Below, piece by piece: positions 1 to 9,265 of a DNA stretch of 9,265 nt. Source of the DNA: a virus. Lineage: Duplodnaviria; Heunggongvirae; Uroviricota; Caudoviricetes. Within the stretch, counting starts at the first letter, position 1. Each line of letters starts with the position of its first letter. The stretch lies in the IMG/VR virus record IMGVR_UViG_2541047843_000007, one strand, 5' to 3'. Position numbers and translations under genes: made by a program. The notes below the pieces were generated by a model, which ran no database searches, had not been told where the DNA came from, and was given only the letters and a program-made list of their open reading frames with translations.

Positions 1-70
1 GAGTCTTGAGTCTTGAGTCTTGAGTCTTGAGTCTTGAGTCTTGAGTCTTGAGTCTTGAGTCTTGAGTCTT
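1..70 (-). repeat. Perfect heptanucleotide tandem repeat, (GAGTCTT)x10 on the + strand = (AAGACTC)x10 on the - strand. The tract runs to the window edge, so true copy number is >=10.
   Basis: Direct reading: 70 nt of uninterrupted 7-bp units, ending at position 70. Lies inside the 5' end of a minus-strand ORF starting at 75. Confidence 0.95.
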
Positions 71-75
71 AACAT
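1..75 (-). CDS. neuO: 5' end of a neuO-like phase-variable polysialic acid O-acetyltransferase gene (start codon only; rest of gene is left of the window).
   Basis: Minus strand reads ATG (75..73) TT then (AAGACTC)n, translating as M-L-(RLKTQDS)n. AAGACTC tracts at the 5' end of neuO, located downstream of the tailspike gene in prophage CUS-3, are established knowledge. Possible SD TAGGA about 8 nt upstream. The acetyltransferase body is not visible, so the identification rests on repeat identity and synteny. Confidence 0.6.
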   Translation of the reverse strand, partial: MLRLKTQDSRLKTQDSRLKTQDSRL

Positions 76-228
76 ATTAGTATCCTACGTTATTTTACCA
101 CTAGTTACTTTTCTTGTCATTAAAAAGCATTTAAATTTTTATATTTAATTTCGTTGACGTCAATGTTTTTTGCCAATGTACTTACTTCTTTATGTGATCA
201 GTTCATATTTTTGACGCCAACGAAACAT

Positions 229-3174
229 TTAGTGCTTCCCTTCTATTAAGTCTAACCTAGCTTTTATTCTTTCTATTTCTCTGCGCTGCCATGCTGCCTC
301 GATATAGAATAAGAGATCAGGTCTGACCCCCCATCTAGATCCTGCTGGCGTTATTTCAACGCGCTCAATGATGTCTTCCATTACCATCACTGGATTATCA
401 TCCTCATCAACAATGATGCTCCCGTCATTATCAGTCAGCGGCATTTCCCTTTGGCCAGTAATGACGTCATCATATACTGCGGGATAATCGTCATAGCAAA
501 GAAAGGCATAGCGGCATGTTGTGCTTTCTTCTTCCATGAGTCCGTGAGAAATAAGAACATCACGAAGTTGCTGCGCGATTACACCATGATGTATCCTCGC
601 CCCTTCTTCCCCCTTTATAGCGACAGCGTTCAGCCATTTATAAGCGATATACCTGACGTCACCCCAGGCATCCAGCAATGTTTCGTCAGGAGAGACCGGC
701 TCTGTCTTTAATGTTCCGTCACTGGTAACCACAGGATTGGAGCCAAGATAAACTATCGAGAACCTGTTTCCCGGACCACCAAGAGCATTTACATTATCAA
801 GATAAGGTTTAACATCTCCGTTCTCAAAAAGATGTTCGAGTGCGTTATATACCGCGCGACGTGGAGTACTGCTTCTGGAACCATGCAACGTTATCATTGC
901 ACCATCTGCTGAAGACGTTGTTTCACCGCCGCTAACGATTAATCTCTGAGCGGTAACATCATCAGACGGTACTTTCTTCGCAATAATGGCGTAATTACCC
1001 TCAAGTTTGACTTCCGCGCGAACTTGTCCTGATGTACCTGCATGGACAGTCAGTGACTGGACGGCAACATCATCTGTGAAATCAACGGGTACAGGAACCG
1101 TCCTCACGCCTGACGTCGACATAAAAGTAGGAAGCGTTCTGTTAGGAGTGGCTCCGTAGACAAAATCCCTTGAAACAAATTCTTCCTGTTTAATTTTCAC
1201 CCTGAAACAATACAAATCAGCCGGGTGACCATCGTGAACATAAGGATATTTTCTGTTGTTATCCCCTATGCTCCATGGGTTTAGAAAGTCTTCCCCACCG
1301 AAAATGTAGTACAGCCAGTTGTCTTTGATACAAACTGAACCAACACCAACCGCAGAGTTAACTATTCCGCCCTGATAAATCTGATCAGTAACATTAACCC
1401 ACTCTACATTATCCAGACTCCACTCATTGACGTTAACTCTGGTCATAAATGTTCTTGGATAGTTTCCTGCATAACGGTTATCAGGTTCTCCTCCTTCCCA
1501 CTCACCAAATGCGCGCTCACTGCCAAAAATAATCAGCTCATCGCCAACTTTGGCAAAAGGAAGGTTTGAGTGATGAACATTATTTGGGAAGCGAAGAGAA
1601 TTCCATGATGTACCTAAATCAGAGCTTCTGTGCAATGAACTACCGGGTTGAGTACTTAATGTCCCCCTGGTCGTCAGATACAGAATGCCATCATAATATT
1701 TTACACATGGCTCAGATGCATTCGCCTCATATTCTGCAGGTATGCGTCTGCGAACAAAGCTACCAGGAGAACCGAAAGCATCAGAGAAATAGAGTATCCC
1801 AAGCTCGCGTGGACCAATATCACCATTATGGTAGCCAACAGCAAAACTGTTATCGCTAATCGTCGCAAAACTGTGAATCTCAGTAACAGGAGTGCTTCCG
1901 TCAACAAAAGAAGGAATAGTTCCAAGACTGGTTTTTCTCCATGGTGACGAGTGAAATGATGTACCAAAACTCCAGTATCTACCCTCGTTATTCTGATCCA
2001 CATCCTGGGTATTTTGCGTCGTAACTGTAAAAGTATTTTTATCAATAACAGTAGTCACCGTCATATTCCCGGTAACACCTGTAACACCAGAGTTTGAGAA
2101 GTTGACAAAATCACCAGCAAATAATCCGTGATCAGTAATGCGAATATAAGCGACTTGCTGATTTGCTGCTTTCGTTATACCACCATAAACGCGAAGGCTG
2201 CGACTCATTGGGCGATCCCACAACTCTGCAACCTGCAGTTTATTTCCGCTCACGGTCCGCGTCTCAATTACAGCAAAAAGGCGATTTCTGACAACCCCCA
2301 TACTCATGCAGTGATAGTTAACTGTGGGATAGTTTTCATGTAAATCTGTAAGCCATTCCGGCGTTGTCCAGGTCTTCCCGTCATCTCCTGAGCGAACCCA
2401 TGCAACATGGAGGTTATTTACACCATGGCGGTCTCCAGCCATAAAAGGCGCATAGATGACATTGTCATATACAAACGTTTTATCCTGCGTCCAGGCGTTG
2501 TACCACGGTGTATCTGTAATTTTAAATAACTCTCCCTGGATAAAATCTTCAGAAACATAAAAAAGAGGCTGACCCGGTATTCTCTCAAATAAAAAACGAG
2601 CATTTTTAAATCGACTGACATCTGGAAGAGTTGATACTTTAAAAGTAAGCCCTCGCCCATCTATCTTTTCACCACCTGTTGCAACAGAAAGTAATTCTGA
2701 TAGAGCTGATGTATCATCATGAACACCATCACCAATAGCCCCCCAACCTCTTACATCATAACTGTCTCTCCATCTTGCTATCTGAAGTTTTGGGTATTTA
2801 TTCGCTCCATCTGGGTCTTCTAATTGCTGCCGTAGTTGATCAGGATCATACTTCAGCACATTCTGGAAATAGAACTGCTGTACGCCATACGCATCGTACA
2901 CAGCCATAGAATGGCCTTGCACAGTTACGAACTTGGCAATCCGTCCGTTATATACAGGGTAACCAGCAGCGTTAATGATGATTGGTTGCGAAACAGGAAC
3001 GTGAGAGCCGTCTTCGTTCTCTACATAAACCTGAATCCGGTTTTCAGGATTTACCGGGTCAGTGTCAATTTTACCGATATAAATTTTGCCATTGGCTACG
3101 GCTTTAAAAGAACGCGCCATAGTGAAGAGTTGCGAAGGCATCGATACAATCACATTGGCTGTAATGTCTGTCAT
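229..3174 (-). CDS. Tailspike protein with endosialidase (endo-N-acetylneuraminidase) module, 981 aa: P22-type head-binding N-terminus, sialidase central region, C-terminal intramolecular chaperone-like domain.
   Basis: Single uninterrupted 981-codon ORF. N-terminal ~110 aa (MTDITANV...[21 protein letters not shown]...VYNG...[12 protein letters not shown]...NVLKYDPDQ) closely matches the P22 gp9 head-binding domain as I recall it. Two sialidase Asp-box motifs (S-x-D-x-G-x-T-W) are present: SGDDGKTW and SSDLGTSW. The C-terminal ~150 aa resembles the autocleaving chaperone domain of K1-phage endosialidases. GGAG lies ~10 nt upstream of the ATG at 3174. Confidence 0.9.
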
Positions 3175-3232
3175 TTAATTTGCTCCAGATGCAAAGAATC
3201 GCCGCAGCATGGCCACGGTGAATTTTGGGCAT

Positions 3233-3255
3233 AAAAAAACCCAGCCGAAGCTGGG
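3233..3255 (-). terminator. Rho-independent terminator (minus strand) between the 147-aa ORF and the tailspike gene.
   Basis: Minus strand reads GC-rich stem CCCAGC (3255..3250), UUCG tetraloop (3249..3246), GCUGGG (3245..3240), then a 7-U run (3239..3233). It sits ~20 nt past the stop of the ORF at 3275..3718. Confidence 0.6.
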
Positions 3256-3274
3256 TCGTTGCGTTGGTTATCTG

Positions 3275-3718
3275 TCAGTAATTATGTACTGAAGGAGGTA
3301 ATTCTTTATTCTTAAGTCTCATCCATGCGGAAAGATTCGTTGGTCCGTCTGGCTCATTGATATCAACATCTCGTGTGTGATTGATTAAAACGTCTCTCGC
3401 CATATCGATAATACGGGAGAACTCATAACCGCAGTCATGACATCTGCCGGAATAGTTCGATTGAATTTGTTTTAGCGCCGGATACAGTTCGCGGAATAAT
3501 GCCTGTGAGCGGTTGGCATAATCCCATAGCCATACAAGGCTGTTTGCTTCTTTTGCAGAAAGCTCGTTGGTTTTCTTCTCTTGTTTGCCGATGAACTCAC
3601 CTTCAAGCACTACCCTGTGGATGTACTCTACTGCTTGTGGTATCTGAGATGCATCAAGCTCTTCAATACTTTCCACATTGAAACGCTGATGAATCATTGC
3701 ATAAGCTTCTGGGTACAT
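3275..3718 (-). CDS. Hypothetical protein, 147 aa, no recognised family; possibly the 3' remnant of a longer gene cut by IS911.
   Basis: 444-nt ORF on the tailspike strand, followed by a terminator. No convincing SD before the first ATG. The frame stays open upstream into the IS911 end (stop only at 3746..3748, inside the IS), consistent with 5' truncation. Contains a CHDC motif, but no domain I can name. Confidence 0.45.
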
Positions 3719-3808
3719 TAGATGCTTTTTGCTGACTGAAGTGGTTTACTGAATTTGGCCACCTGAACAGAGGTGATATGCTCACCTCAGAACAACACAG
3801 GTGCCATA

Positions 3809-4956
<1,148 letters not shown>

Positions 4957-4986
4957 CTCGGTGGCCAGTTTTTGTTGACCACTTCA

Positions 4987-5157
4987 ATGCAACAGTTCGC
5001 TATTGCAGGGGCGGCATCGGTTCGCCCTTTCAACCCGATTTTATCGGTACAGCATTCACGAAAAAACATTTTAACCGGAGCAGACTTTAAACAACCAAGA
5101 ATGAAAAGCTTGCTCGAAAAGCTTTGGGATATTTTGAAACAACAAGGCCGTCCATGA
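4987..5157 (+). CDS. Small hypothetical ORF (56 aa from the ATG at 4987); possibly the distal part of a gene truncated by IS911.
   Basis: The ATG is the first triplet after the IS911 right end and has no SD. The stop overlaps the next start (ATGA at 5154..5157), suggesting membership of an operon. Confidence 0.3.
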   Translation: MQQFAIAGAASVRPFNPILSVQHSRKNILTGADFKQPRMKSLLEKLWDILKQQGRP

Positions 5158-5312
5158 GTTTTACGGATAACTGGTCAGACGAAGAATTCATTCGTCAGAT
5201 AAAAGAATTAATCGGTAACGAAGGAGATATTCATGTCACTTGCAACCACAGTGAAGGAGAGCAAGTTACAGAGACGCATGTACACGCAGAAAGCTCTCTG
5301 GTATCGCCATAA
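5154..5312 (+). CDS. Small hypothetical early protein, 52 aa, immediately upstream of erf.
   Basis: ATG at 5154 with AAGG about 7 nt upstream. ATGA overlap with the preceding ORF. The position matches the small kil/arf-type genes that precede erf in P22-like phages, but no sequence recognition is claimed. Confidence 0.4.
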   Translation: MSFTDNWSDEEFIRQIKELIGNEGDIHVTCNHSEGEQVTETHVHAESSLVSP

Positions 5313-5413
5313 TGGTGACCGCGAAGGAATGCGGGTATGCCTTAATTTGTCCCGAGTCGAAGTATTAAATCAGCGTTATTTCCTTGGGCCGTGTCCATTC
5401 TGAGAGCAATCAT

Positions 5414-6019
5414 ATGAGCAAAGAATTTTACGCAAGACTGGCAGCTATTCAGGAGAATCTGAACGCGCCAAAGAATCAGTACAACTCATTCGGCAAATAT
5501 AAATACAGAAGCTGCGAAGATATTCTTGAAGGCGTTAAGCCGTTACTGAACGGTCTGTTTTTATCAATCAGCGATGAAGTTGTGTTGATTGGTGATCGGT
5601 ATTACGTGAAAGCCACGGCAACTATTACCGATGGCGAAAACAGTCATACGGCAACCGCTCTTGCACGAGAGGAAGAAAGCAAGAAAGGAATGGATTCTGC
5701 ACAAGTTACGGGAGCTACAAGCTCTTATGCACGCAAGTATTGCCTCAATGGTTTGTTCGGCATTGATGATGCGAAAGATGCAGATACAGACGAGCATAAA
5801 CATCAGCAGAACGCAGCAGCAAAGCAATCAAAACCATCACTTACACCTGAACAGGTTCTAAAAGCATTCACTGACGCAGCAATGCAGAAAAACACCGTAG
5901 AAGAGCTTAAACAGGCGTTCGCCAAAGCGTGGAAGATGCTCGAAGGGACGCCGGAGCAGCACAAAGCGCAGGACGTTTACAACATCAGACGAGACGAATT
6001 AGAAGGGGCAACTGCTTAA
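5414..6019 (+). CDS. erf: Erf (essential recombination function) single-strand annealing protein, 201 aa.
   Basis: N-terminus MSKEFYARLAAIQENLNAPKNQYNSFGKYKYRSCEDILEGVKPLL matches P22 Erf as recalled. The tool ORF begins at a TTG at 5384; the ATG at 5414 is preferred. Its stop overlaps the next start (TAATG). Confidence 0.8.
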   Translation: MSKEFYARLAAIQENLNAPKNQYNSFGKYKYRSCEDILEGVKPLLNGLFLSISDEVVLIGDRYYVKATATITDGENSHTATALAREEESKKGMDSAQVTGATSSYARKYCLNGLFGIDDAKDADTDEHKHQQNAAAKQSKPSLTPEQVLKAFTDAAMQKNTVEELKQAFAKAWKMLEGTPEQHKAQDVYNIRRDELEGATA

Positions 6020-6402
6020 TGGCACATTCGATTACAGTAAGACTAAACAAACCCGCAAGAGAGTTTCAGGGCGGGGAAAATATCGGATTCAACATCCGTG
6101 CTGGCGTTCAGTATTACGATCGCCAGACAAAAAAGAAAGAATGGACAAACTACAGCGCCGTTGTATTTGCCAAGCCGGGAGCGCAAGCGGATTACTATCG
6201 TAGCGTTCTGGTTGAAGGAGGCATTGTAGAAATTACCGGAGAAAACATCAGGGTTGATGTTTATCAGGGGCAAAATGGTCAATCAATCACTCTTGAATTA
6301 CTGAATGCAAAGATTGGATTTGCAACTTCAGGAAACAGCCAACAGCAGCAAAGTAGCAATCATCAAAATAATCCTGAATACGACGATTCCATCCCATTCT
6401 GA
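6019..6402 (+). CDS. Phage single-stranded DNA-binding-like protein, 127 aa, with an SSB-type acidic C-terminal tip.
   Basis: ATG at 6019 overlaps the erf stop (TAATG), suggesting translational coupling. The protein ends in DDSIPF (compare the canonical SSB tail DDDIPF), preceded by a Q/S/N-rich linker. The N-terminal ~100 aa has an OB-fold-like alternation (EW..YSAVVF). The tool ORF from 5929 is an upstream extension overlapping erf. Confidence 0.65.
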   Translation: MAHSITVRLNKPAREFQGGENIGFNIRAGVQYYDRQTKKKEWTNYSAVVFAKPGAQADYYRSVLVEGGIVEITGENIRVDVYQGQNGQSITLELLNAKIGFATSGNSQQQQSSNHQNNPEYDDSIPF

Positions 6403-6425
6403 TTTAGAAAAATAAGGATTTAATT

Positions 6426-6722
6426 ATGCCAGCGCCTTTGTATGGTGCGGATGACCCGCGCCGCTGTTCCGGCAATTCCGTATCGGAGGTGCTGGATAAA
6501 TTCAGAAAAAACTACGATCGAATAATGTCTCTACCGCAGGAAACGAAAGAGGAAAAGGAATTTCGCCACTGTATATGGCTTGCAGAGAAAGAAGAACGCG
6601 AGCGAATTTACCAGACATCAATCCGACCATTCCGCAAAGCCACATATACCCACTTCCCTGAATATATCGACCCGCGCCTGCGTAATTACCGCTCACGCTA
6701 TGGCGCTATCAGTAATGACTGA
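6426..6722 (+). CDS. abc2: Abc2-like anti-RecBCD protein, 98 aa (assignment from position and size; exact sequence not recalled).
   Basis: ATG at 6426 with AAGGA 7 nt upstream. 98 codons, the size I recall for P22 Abc2. It lies downstream of erf in the same operon, as abc genes do in P22. Confidence 0.55.
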   Translation: MPAPLYGADDPRRCSGNSVSEVLDKFRKNYDRIMSLPQETKEEKEFRHCIWLAEKEERERIYQTSIRPFRKATYTHFPEYIDPRLRNYRSRYGAISND

Positions 6723-6816
6723 GGAATTTACCATGAGAGGACTTGCTTAAGAGAAAGAGTTTCGGTTCTGTTAATGACAACAAATATCTGAATGCGATGT
6801 GGCGGAGTGGGAAGAA

Positions 6817-7335
6817 ATGAAACAAATGTCACTAATTGAGATGGATGGTTTTCTGAAAGGTAAATGCATCCCAAGTGATTTAAAGGTTAACGAAACAAAC
6901 GCTGAATACCTTGTCCGTAAGTTCGGTGAACTTGAATCAAAACTGGAAACGGCGTTGCGGGAGTGTAGTTCTGCTGGAATCACGATTGATAACCTTGAGG
7001 CTAAATGCGCGAAGATGGCTGCTGAAAATACCTCACTTAAGCAATCTGAGAAGGAATTTAATGACTTTTGTCGTGAGGAGTTTAGCGAATGGGAAGATGA
7101 TGTTACTGAAACCCCAGCCACCGATGCTTTTCTGGCTGAAGTGCGGGCGCAGGGGGTGGATGCTGCTATAGAAGCTGCAAAAAATCTGGTGGCCCAAGAA
7201 TATGAGTATAAGGATTTCAAAGCGGCGCAGAGTGATTGCTGTATGCACCCTGGTTCAGACCTGGTAGGGAAGGTTGAAATGACTGAGTGGTTAGTTGACT
7301 TTGCTGCCCAGCTTCGCAAAGGAGGCAACCAGTGA
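6817..7335 (+). CDS. Hypothetical acidic protein, 172 aa; first gene of a translationally coupled cassette.
   Basis: ATG at 6817 with GGAG 9 nt upstream (the tool ORF starts at a GTG at 6799). The stop overlaps the next start (GTGA). The large antisense ORF 6771..7568 is rejected as a shadow. Confidence 0.6.
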   Translation: MKQMSLIEMDGFLKGKCIPSDLKVNETNAEYLVRKFGELESKLETALRECSSAGITIDNLEAKCAKMAAENTSLKQSEKEFNDFCREEFSEWEDDVTETPATDAFLAEVRAQGVDAAIEAAKNLVAQEYEYKDFKAAQSDCCMHPGSDLVGKVEMTEWLVDFAAQLRKGGNQ

Positions 7336-7631
7336 CTGTATGTCTTATTGATAAACGTCGACGTGGGCAACAAATACCATCTGTTGAAATGCCGAATCAC
7401 ACATGGTTTTGCGTACTTGATATCGATGGTATGGATACGTTGGTTGACACTCGTCATTACTGCGATACCGCAACAGCTACTCCGGCGAAAGCAAAGAAAA
7501 TGGCTGCTCTGATAGAAAACTGGACTCCACCTGATGGTTGGTGCAATGGGAATGATCGAGATTGGCACGAAAAAATGAAGGGCTATATCTGCGATTTTTT
7601 ACGTAAATGCAACGGCTTCAGGGGGATGTGA
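7332..7631 (+). CDS. Hypothetical Cys-rich small protein, 99 aa.
   Basis: GTG start at 7332 with AGGAGG 6 nt upstream, overlapping the previous stop. Six Cys and several His are spread through the protein, so metal binding is possible but unproven. Confidence 0.55.
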   Translation: MTVCLIDKRRRGQQIPSVEMPNHTWFCVLDIDGMDTLVDTRHYCDTATATPAKAKKMAALIENWTPPDGWCNGNDRDWHEKMKGYICDFLRKCNGFRGM

Positions 7632-7632
7632 T

Positions 7633-8205
7633 ATGACCAAAATTAACTATCAGGCACTGCGTGAGGCGGCAGAACGTGCAATTCCGGCAATGGAACGCCT
7701 GTTAATGTTGCCAGTTGATGATGATTTGTTAAGTGAACAGGAACTTAAGGATTACGGTGTGGATATTGATGCGCTCAACGCCTTCAAATTTCTGACCGGA
7801 CCAGAAACCGTGCTGGCGCTGCTGGATGAACGGGAAAGAAACCAGCAATACATCAAACGCCGCGACCAGGAGAACGAGGAAATTGCGCTAACGGTAGGGA
7901 AGCTGCGCGTTGAGCTGGAAGCTGCAGAGAAGCGCATTGCAGAACTGGAAGCCGAACCTGTAAGCCAAACTTACAAGTTGAACGAGCTGTCGGGCAACTA
8001 TCCGGTAACTCCGGATGGTTGGATAAGCTGTAGTGAGCGAATGCCCGCTCAAGATGATTGGATTTTAATTTATTCAAAGCACGGCGAGTATATGGCAGGA
8101 CAGGTACAAGGGGAATACGTGGAGTTGAGCGACGGCACTTTATCGTGGTTAGGGAACGCCTTGTTCTGGATGCCGCTACCAGAACCGCCGCAGGAGGTTA
8201 ATTGA
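7633..8205 (+). CDS. Ead/Ea22-like protein with a C-terminal DUF551-like region, 190 aa.
   Basis: ATG 1 nt after the previous stop (TGAtATG). The N-terminus (MTKINYQALREAAERA...) is typical of lambdoid Ea22-family proteins as recalled, and the C-terminus (PDGWISCSERMP...LFWMPLPEPP) resembles DUF551. Coiled-coil-like middle (ELEAAEKRIAELEAE). Confidence 0.65.
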   Translation: MTKINYQALREAAERAIPAMERLLMLPVDDDLLSEQELKDYGVDIDALNAFKFLTGPETVLALLDERERNQQYIKRRDQENEEIALTVGKLRVELEAAEKRIAELEAEPVSQTYKLNELSGNYPVTPDGWISCSERMPAQDDWILIYSKHGEYMAGQVQGEYVELSDGTLSWLGNALFWMPLPEPPQEVN

Positions 8206-8399
8206 TGGTCTCCTTCGCGAAATATACGATTATTGACTGGATAGCATTCATTCAGGTTTTGCTCATCTGGTTTTATATGGCTTACAGGAGTGGACAGTGG
8301 ATTGTCAGTGTAGCCTGTAGCAATGGATGGCGTTGGTGGAACCGAAAGAATAAAAAAAGCGCTGGCCTTGGCTTCGTTTTACGAAGCATTCAATCTTAA
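8205..8399 (+). CDS. Small putative single-pass membrane protein, 64 aa.
   Basis: ATG at 8205 overlaps the previous stop (TGATG), with AGGAGG 7 nt upstream. Hydrophobic segment IIDWIAFIQVLLIWFYMAY followed by a basic stretch (WNRKNKK). Confidence 0.5.
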   Translation: MVSFAKYTIIDWIAFIQVLLIWFYMAYRSGQWIVSVACSNGWRWWNRKNKKSAGLGFVLRSIQS

Positions 8400-8482
8400 C
8401 AGTCTTCAGCCTGGTTCTGTCGTTGTAGTCACCACTCAAAGCGGCATGACGATACAAATTCACAAGCCAAAGGAGGAAGGTC

Positions 8483-8767
8483 GTGGCTAACCTGCAACTT
8501 GCCGTTAAAGGTGAATACTTCGATGCCATGATTCGCGGAGAGAAAACGGAAGAGTATCGCCTGTGTAATGACTACTGGAATAAGCGAATTATGTTCCGCG
8601 AGTATGACCGCCTGATTATCACAAAGGGATATCCGAAGCGCGACGATTCCAGCCGCAGAATTGACGTCCCGTATGACGGATATGAAATCAAGACAATCAC
8701 ACATCCGCACTTCGGCGATAAACCGGTAAAGGTATTCGCTATAAAGGTGAATATCGACAATGAATGA
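8483..8767 (+). CDS. ASCH-motif (PUA-like) small protein, 94 aa.
   Basis: GTG start at 8483 with AGGAGG 6 nt upstream. Contains G-x-K-x-x-E-x-R (GEKTEEYR), the ASCH signature as recalled. Confidence 0.6.
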   Translation: MANLQLAVKGEYFDAMIRGEKTEEYRLCNDYWNKRIMFREYDRLIITKGYPKRDDSSRRIDVPYDGYEIKTITHPHFGDKPVKVFAIKVNIDNE

Positions 8768-8839
8768 TAATCCTCGCACTCGCGGGGATTTCTTTTATCT
8801 GAACTCGCTACGGCGGGTTTTGTTTTATGGAGATGATAA

Positions 8840-9007
8840 ATGCACTTCCGAGTCACAGGTGAATGGAATGGAGAGCCATTCAACAGAGTTATCGAAGCAG
8901 AGAACATCAACGACTGCTATGACCACTGGATGCTGTGGGCGCAGATAGCACATGCAGACGTAACTAATATTCGAATTGAAGAACTGAAAGAACACCAAGC
9001 CGCCTGA
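8840..9007 (+). CDS. Small hypothetical protein, 55 aa (below the ORF-track size cutoff); the overlapping ORF 8760..8948 is the alternative.
   Basis: ATG at 8840 with GGAG about 8 nt upstream. Translation MHFRVTGEWNGEPFNRVIEAENINDCYDHWMLWAQIAHADVTNIRIEELKEHQAA. The stop TGA (9005..9007) lies in the loop of the terminator hairpin. It reads as more protein-like than the out-of-frame 8760..8948 ORF, but which one is real cannot be decided without homology. Confidence 0.35.
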   Translation: MHFRVTGEWNGEPFNRVIEAENINDCYDHWMLWAQIAHADVTNIRIEELKEHQAA

Positions 9008-9019
9008 TGGCGGTTTTTT
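8999..9019 (+). terminator. Rho-independent terminator closing the accessory operon, upstream of the excisionase-like gene.
   Basis: Stem GCCGCC (8999..9004), loop TGAT, stem GGCGG (9009..9013), then a 6-T run (9014..9019). Confidence 0.6.
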
Positions 9020-9064
9020 ATTGCCTGATTTGCAGGTTCGATTCCCTATTCGGAGATAGCACTC

Positions 9065-9265
9065 ATGCAACACGAACTACAACCTGATTCACTGGTTGAT
9101 TTGAAATTCATCATGGCCGATACTGGCTTCGGTAAAACCTTCATCTATGACCGGATTAAGTCCGGCGACCTGCCAAAAGCCAAAGTTATCCACGGGCGAG
9201 CAAGATGGTTATATCGTGACCATTGTGAATTCAAAAATAAGCTCTTAAGCCGCGCCAATGGGTAA
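9065..9265 (+). CDS. Excisionase / AlpA-family winged-helix DNA-binding protein, 66 aa; an integrase gene is expected just beyond the window.
   Basis: ATG at 9065 with GGAGA about 9 nt upstream. Translation (FIMADTGFGKTFIYDRIKSGDLPKAKVIHGRARWLYRDHCEF) fits the AlpA/Xis helix-turn-helix pattern. It is the last gene of the early-left arm, where xis sits in P22-like phages. Confidence 0.6.
   Translation: MQHELQPDSLVDLKFIMADTGFGKTFIYDRIKSGDLPKAKVIHGRARWLYRDHCEFKNKLLSRANG

Follow-up and report, generated by a model that had tools for sequence, protein, structure and literature searches.

The lic genes of Haemophilus influenzae are contingency loci that carry in-frame tetranucleotide repeats at their 5' ends. 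Contingency loci of other bacteria often act by promoter spacing. P22-like phages carry genes for polysaccharide modification beside the tailspike gene and the attachment site (att), as exemplified by gtrABC of P22 and oac of Shigella phage Sf6.

The closest described system is neuO of prophage CUS-3 in E. coli K1 (Deszo et al. 2005, cited in PMC3046976). The repeat tract of neuO lies 2 nucleotides after the start codon, comprises 2 to 93 copies, and usually gains or loses a single unit at a time via strand slippage. Full-length active enzyme is made only from multiples of three, and OFF alleles give a truncated protein (PMC3046976). The catalytic efficiency of NeuO climbs linearly as the heptads become more numerous, and the tail that they form is disordered in the crystal (PMC3046976). 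Among 64 complete genomes, 42 alleles were OFF and 22 were ON, with 3 to 53 copies, and fragment analysis of strain MS7163 gave 21 copies in 93% of the cells, 20 in 1.9% and 22 in 5.4% (PMC13001214). Within four passages, a strain came ON by a gain from 38 to 39 copies, which was seen in 2 of 30 colonies (PMC8653822). Transcription of neuO needs the host regulator DsdC, and NeuO reduces killing by K1 phages (PMC9659370). The phenotype has been demonstrated by mass spectrometry and HPLC (PMC13001214, PMC8653822). In the present analysis, the slippage mechanism, the switching rates, the tuning of activity, the regulation by DsdC and the phenotypes were taken from this literature.

The window (the whole stretch of 9,265 bases analysed here) was searched with Tandem Repeats Finder. 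A single array was found, at 1..70, with a period of 7, 10.0 copies, 100% matches and a score of 140, which is far beyond chance. Its unit reads GAGTCTT on the plus strand and AAGACTC on the minus strand. The order on the minus strand was AGGATACTAAT, ATG, TT, (AAGACTC)10, and then the end of the window. The start codon (75..73) and the TT ahead of the tract occupy 71..75 on this strand, and AGGA at 83..86, 7 nt 5' of the ATG, is a probable ribosome-binding site. The initial annotation had placed the tract 5 nt after the ATG. This stands if counted from the A of the ATG, but the distance from the start codon to the tract is 2 nt.

Translation of the N-terminus gave M-L-(RLKTQDS)n, in which three AAGACTC units code for one RLKTQDS heptad, in agreement with the repeating heptapeptide proposed at the outset. 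The strand opposite the tract, on the other hand, contained a stop codon in all frames. The ten exact units are clipped by the window edge, and the copy number is a lower bound of at least 10, since the tract touches base 1. Because the tract runs off the edge, the ON/OFF phase of this allele cannot be read from the window, as had been recognized initially.

Comparison with the Enterobacteria phage CUS-3 record (CP000711.1) identified the gene. Window 1..1500 was 100% identical to 2298..3797 of this record, in which 2235..2367 carries the annotation 'neuO, poly(psi) domain' with 19 copies of the heptanucleotide AAGACTC. The gene after this repeat region in CP000711.1 is siaK1, which encodes the endosialidase tailspike, and a tailspike ORF was found in the window at 229..3174 on the minus strand. 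The gene that had been described as 'neuO-like' and downstream of the tailspike is neuO itself, by the identity with CUS-3 and the poly(psi) label, and it does lie downstream of the tailspike. Window 1..75 (minus strand) is almost certainly the first 75 bases of phase-variable neuO, the polysialic-acid O-acetyltransferase gene of CUS-3.

The heptamer, the 2-nt spacing from the ATG and the siaK1 neighbor all match those of neuO in CUS-3, as does the argW/dsdC site in the closest genomes. There was no difference in the visible part of neuO, but the prophage in the window is a remnant with ISEc52 and about 30 kb missing. Around the locus, the argW/dsdC site of the closest genomes carries int, tRNA-Arg, yfdC and dsdC. 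The locus region was found in 194 of 5,426 complete E. coli genomes, and was chromosomal in every case. Phase variation of neuO is already known in detail, and finding neuO here is no new biology.

As in the lic genes of H. influenzae, ON/OFF control of neuO is exerted on translation by slippage, the repeat unit is not a multiple of 3, and the repeats lie at the 5' end of a gene for surface modification. Unlike in lic, the unit of neuO is 7 nt, the in-frame copies code for a tail that tunes activity, and the locus is phage-borne. The position of neuO between the tailspike gene and int/att is shared with gtrABC of P22 and oac of Sf6, and in these systems too the prophage changes its own receptor, limiting superinfection. 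The difference is that gtrABC and oac modify the O-antigen, whereas the product of neuO modifies the capsule. The phase variation of gtr is epigenetic, whereas that of neuO is repeat-based.

The tract was followed beyond the window edge in related loci. Complete tracts were available from 27 loci, namely CUS-3, 22 E. coli genome records (21 strains) and 4 IMG/VR viral contigs; 3 more viral contigs stopped within the tract and gave no complete count. The copy number ranged from 8 to 60 with 20 distinct values, so that the tract is not invariant across isolates. In the 13 loci with n mod 3 = 0, the ATG frame entered the enzyme body to give products of 251 to 356 aa (ON). These ON alleles spanned 15 to 60 copies, or 5 to 20 heptads. 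In the other 14, in which n mod 3 was not 0, the ORF from the ATG was only 28 to 129 aa long (OFF). The rule set out in the initial annotation, that the frame is open only if n is a multiple of 3, held in all 27 loci, and leftward extension found an acetyltransferase ORF after the tract in every one of them. Modelling of 9, 10, 11 and 12 copies on the CUS-3 body gave 237, 28, 45 and 244 aa, respectively.

The sequences on both sides of the tract did not vary. The 159 nt that run from the stop codon of the tailspike gene up to the ATG of neuO were identical in 31 of 31 loci with zero substitutions, and the 214-residue acetyltransferase body downstream of the tract was identical in 27 of 27. Variability was limited to the tract and the flanks were invariant, which is the signature of a slipped-strand contingency locus. 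In MS7163, the tract was counted as 21 copies, equal to the published Sanger-verified count. The ON:OFF ratio of 13:14 comes from a biased sample, in which genomes with an annotated acyltransferase were fetched preferentially, and the published 22 ON : 42 OFF is the better estimate.

Two of the related alleles stood out. E. coli PE144 (NZ_OZ287278.1) carried a 60-copy ON allele with 20 heptads and a 356-aa product. This number exceeds the range of 3 to 53 in 64 complete genomes (PMC13001214), and lies inside the earlier range of 2 to 93. The viral contig IMGVR_UViG_2537562173_000011 carried, at 4124..4228 (minus-strand count), an in-frame tract of 15 units, of which 4 were substituted (AAGCCTC, AAGTCTC). 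The longest perfect run in this tract was 3 units. Slippage should be much rarer in such an interrupted tract, and it may be a naturally stabilized ON allele.

The use of AAGACTC as a marker of neuO-related loci elsewhere was considered and rejected. Exact (AAGACTC)4 tracts occurred in more than 120 stretches among the matches listed (one genome per species), almost all of them in Planctomycetota, Acidobacteriota, Bacteroidota and symbionts. At least 10 (AAGACTC)4 loci each were counted in an Acidobacteria MAG and in the MAG of a sponge symbiont. These stretches were composite heptamer arrays, with 168 period-7 arrays and 55 different units in 561 kb. By a crude test, proximity to gene starts was no greater for the arrays than for random positions (0.438 vs 0.436). 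No connection of these arrays to neuO was seen.

The product of an ON allele was compared with known proteins. The ON allele of strain O18 (18 copies) encodes 258 aa with a Pfam Hexapep match (1.1e-10), and this protein matched PDB 3JQY, 'Polysialic acid O-acetyltransferase', with E = 9.7e-161 and no mismatch over the aligned length. The second-best structure was OatWY (2WLC, E = 4.6e-31) of Neisseria meningitidis W-135 and Y (PDB 2WLC-2WLG). OatWY resembles NeuO in belonging to the left-handed beta-helix fold family and in acting on a sialic-acid capsule. On the other hand, the 215-residue chain of OatWY aligned to the NeuO body alone (query residues 67..250), with no counterpart of the RLKTQDS tail.

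In the automated RefSeq annotation of ON genomes, a full-length acyltransferase CDS begins at the same ATG. In OFF genomes, RefSeq gives just a 111-aa 'acyltransferase' (WP_011478229.1) from an internal Met, and the reference CUS-3 record presents neuO as a repeat_region with no neuO CDS. Given these OFF fragments and the missing CDS in CUS-3, annotated proteins are no guide to whether a genome has neuO. The practical use of the present finding is in annotation: OFF alleles are called as fragments, and repeat counts from short-read assemblies are unreliable.

In the mechanism that fits best, neuO serves as a lysogenic-conversion gene of the P22-like CUS-3 prophage in E. coli K1. Slipped-strand mispairing in replication adds or removes AAGACTC units. 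Since 7 is not a multiple of 3, the frame from the ATG is open into the left-handed beta-helix body only if n is divisible by 3. The OFF copy numbers yield a short peptide ending 5 or 19 codons beyond the tract. In an ON allele, every 3 units add one more RLKTQDS to the unstructured N-terminal tail, and activity goes up. Downstream of the tract, GTTTTCCGTTGATGATAATGG followed by the 214-codon body would be expected in the source genome. NeuO O-acetylates the K1 capsule, with altered antigenicity and lowered killing by K1-specific phages and neutrophils as the outcome. The tract is both a switch and a dial, because the frame depends on n and, as published, activity grows with the number of heptads.

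It could be asked whether the tract has been selected chiefly as a dial, acting via how long the RLKTQDS tail is, and whether ON/OFF switching is a side effect of this. The linear gain of catalytic efficiency with the heptads (PMC3046976) would suit such a role, as would the range of 5 to 20 heptads (15 to 60 copies) among the ON alleles. Against it, from about half (this sample) to two thirds (42/64, PMC13001214) of the natural alleles are out of frame, and the commonest event is a single-unit change, which always shifts the phase (PMC3046976). The switch and dial roles are moreover compatible, and both have been described already. We considered it unlikely that the dial is the main role, and favored a tract that acts as switch and dial together.

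The prophage around neuO proved to be eroded. Window 1..3607 aligned to CUS-3 2298..5904, and the window was not collinear with CUS-3 beyond this. The siaK1 gene (229..3174, minus strand), directly upstream of neuO, encodes 981 aa with the Pfam domains End_beta_propel (1.2e-233), End_tail_spike, Head_binding and Peptidase_S74. Farther along the window, at 3275..3718 (minus strand), lies a C-terminal fragment of the antirepressor gene ant (Pfam P22_AR_C), which is cut by an IS and is also partial in strain 19AR1321. The IS is ISEc52 (3737..4986, plus strand), an IS3-family element of 1250 bp with terminal inverted repeats TGAAGTGGT. The region at 5154..9045 (plus strand) corresponds to the early-left region of CUS-3 (erf, anti-RecBCD and ea genes) up to the attR core (9030..9045), with 99.8% identity to CP000711.1 36317..40207. 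The torI gene occupies 9065..9265.

CUS-3 5905..36316, a stretch of about 30 kb with all virion, lysis, replication and immunity genes, was missing from the window. ISEc52 was without a target duplication, with GAC on its left and ATG on its right. The absence of the 30 kb together with the lack of a target duplication fits an IS-linked deletion. The left IS junction was found in none of the 5,426 complete E. coli genomes, and the right junction in CEA212U only. Compared with the window, the ant fragment of 19AR1321 was longer by 103 bp and its right side shorter by 152 bp, whereas in CEA212U ant was about 250 bp shorter and the right junction was equal.

The 167 bp to the right of the IS (window 4987..5153) were missing from the RS218 CUS-3 record. 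In many other prophages of the CUS-3 type, they adjoined the erf region without a break. By this comparison, we interpreted the segment to be a small mosaic difference among CUS-3 variants. In the closest genomes torI is followed by dsdC, whose product regulates neuO. The distance between neuO and dsdC is about 9.5 kb in the remnant and about 40 kb in an intact lysogen.

Other copies of CUS-3 were also truncated in an IS-linked manner: within the tailspike gene in O18, SF-088 and FY26, within an injection gene in PE144, and within ant in 19AR1321 and CEA212U. At least 6 differently placed truncations linked to IS3 or ISEc52 were seen, all with int, neuO and an uninterrupted tract. This suggested that the phage may have decayed repeatedly while neuO was retained. 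Whether neuO has been domesticated repeatedly, with selection keeping the phase-variable acetyltransferase as the phage decays around it, is a further step, which we put forward as possible though somewhat doubtful.

Such decay could also have reached neuO. The tract would then be a relic, with the neuO body deleted or inactivated beyond the left edge of the window, and changes in copy number would have no phenotype. The window is after all a CUS-3 remnant with about 30 kb gone and ISEc52 at the break, IS-linked truncations occur in other CUS-3 copies, and the neuO body sits beyond the window edge. However, an intact and identical 214-aa body was present in 27 of 27 loci with the same upstream sequence. 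These 27 include the closest remnants, 19AR1321 and CEA212U, as well as the truncated O18, SF-088, FY26 and PE144. Erosion in all these begins on the far side of the tailspike gene, and never at neuO. A relic is accordingly very improbable, and we infer that the neuO body is intact past the window edge in this genome.

The spacer between the tailspike stop and the neuO start (76..228, minus strand) had been noted as very AT-rich. Its G+C content was 27.5%, compared with 44% in the tailspike gene, and it was invariant in 31 loci. A consensus scan found 3 promoter-like sites, compared with 0.8 +/- 0.9 in shuffled sequences. The extended -10 motif proposed earlier at 100..92, TGGTAAAAT, was present, and together with ATGACA it made the best sigma-70-like match in the region (10/12 plus TG). 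This candidate promoter, P1 (92..120, minus strand), has the -35 hexamer ATGACA (120..115), a 17-nt spacer and the TG-extended -10 hexamer TAAAAT (97..92). Promoter function of the 100..92 motif is tentative. With a start about 7 nt past the -10, at about 85, transcription would begin on the AGGA and the leader would be only some 10 nt long. The candidate promoter P2 (135..163, minus strand) has the -35 hexamer TTGACG (163..158), a 17-nt spacer and the -10 hexamer AAAAAT (140..135), with a match of 9/12. With P2, the leader would be about 50 nt long.

No terminator-like site was found 3' of the tailspike gene, and read-through from the tailspike gene is therefore also possible. With no difference among the spacers of 31 loci, conservation is uninformative on the promoter. 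Scanning the window for Rfam families and tRNA genes gave no matches. No mapped transcription start for neuO was found in the literature covered, which was later than the original reports (Deszo 2005, King 2007). P1 and P2 are putative promoters, by consensus match.

A related endosialidase phage, vB_EcoP-720R6 (ON470605.1, position 2501), showed homology that ended at window 115. The sequence of vB_EcoP-720R6 past this point was that of host bioA and ybhB, a prophage end at another integration site. From this break, the neuO-int module of CUS-3 starts at about window 114. The boundary of this module falls inside candidate promoter P1.

Promoter spacing drives many contingency loci elsewhere, and the AT-rich region upstream of the tract contains promoter-like hexamers close to it. 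A tract that sets transcription, as a switch of promoter or leader spacing, in place of the reading frame is nevertheless next to impossible: the tract lies 3' of an ATG preceded at 7 nt by a ribosome-binding site, its promoter-proximal end is fixed so that the initiation region is equal at any copy number, the ORF length tracks n mod 3 exactly in 27 loci, RefSeq calls a full CDS from the ATG in ON genomes, and OFF alleles give a truncated protein (PMC3046976).

The finding of neuO in this window, with its tract as a switch of the reading frame, is new only as context, which consists of an IS-eroded CUS-3 remnant and other IS-linked truncations that keep neuO. The erosion of the prophage is a small addition, of relevance to the question of whether the phage still carries neuO along in such strains. 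If the domestication of neuO is true, neuO here would ride no mobile phage and would sit about 9.5 kb from the host regulator gene dsdC. The K1 capsule is a major virulence factor of E. coli in neonatal meningitis and urinary-tract infection, and the switching and tuning of neuO bear on its antigenicity, on resistance to K1 phages and neutrophils, and on serum sensitivity.
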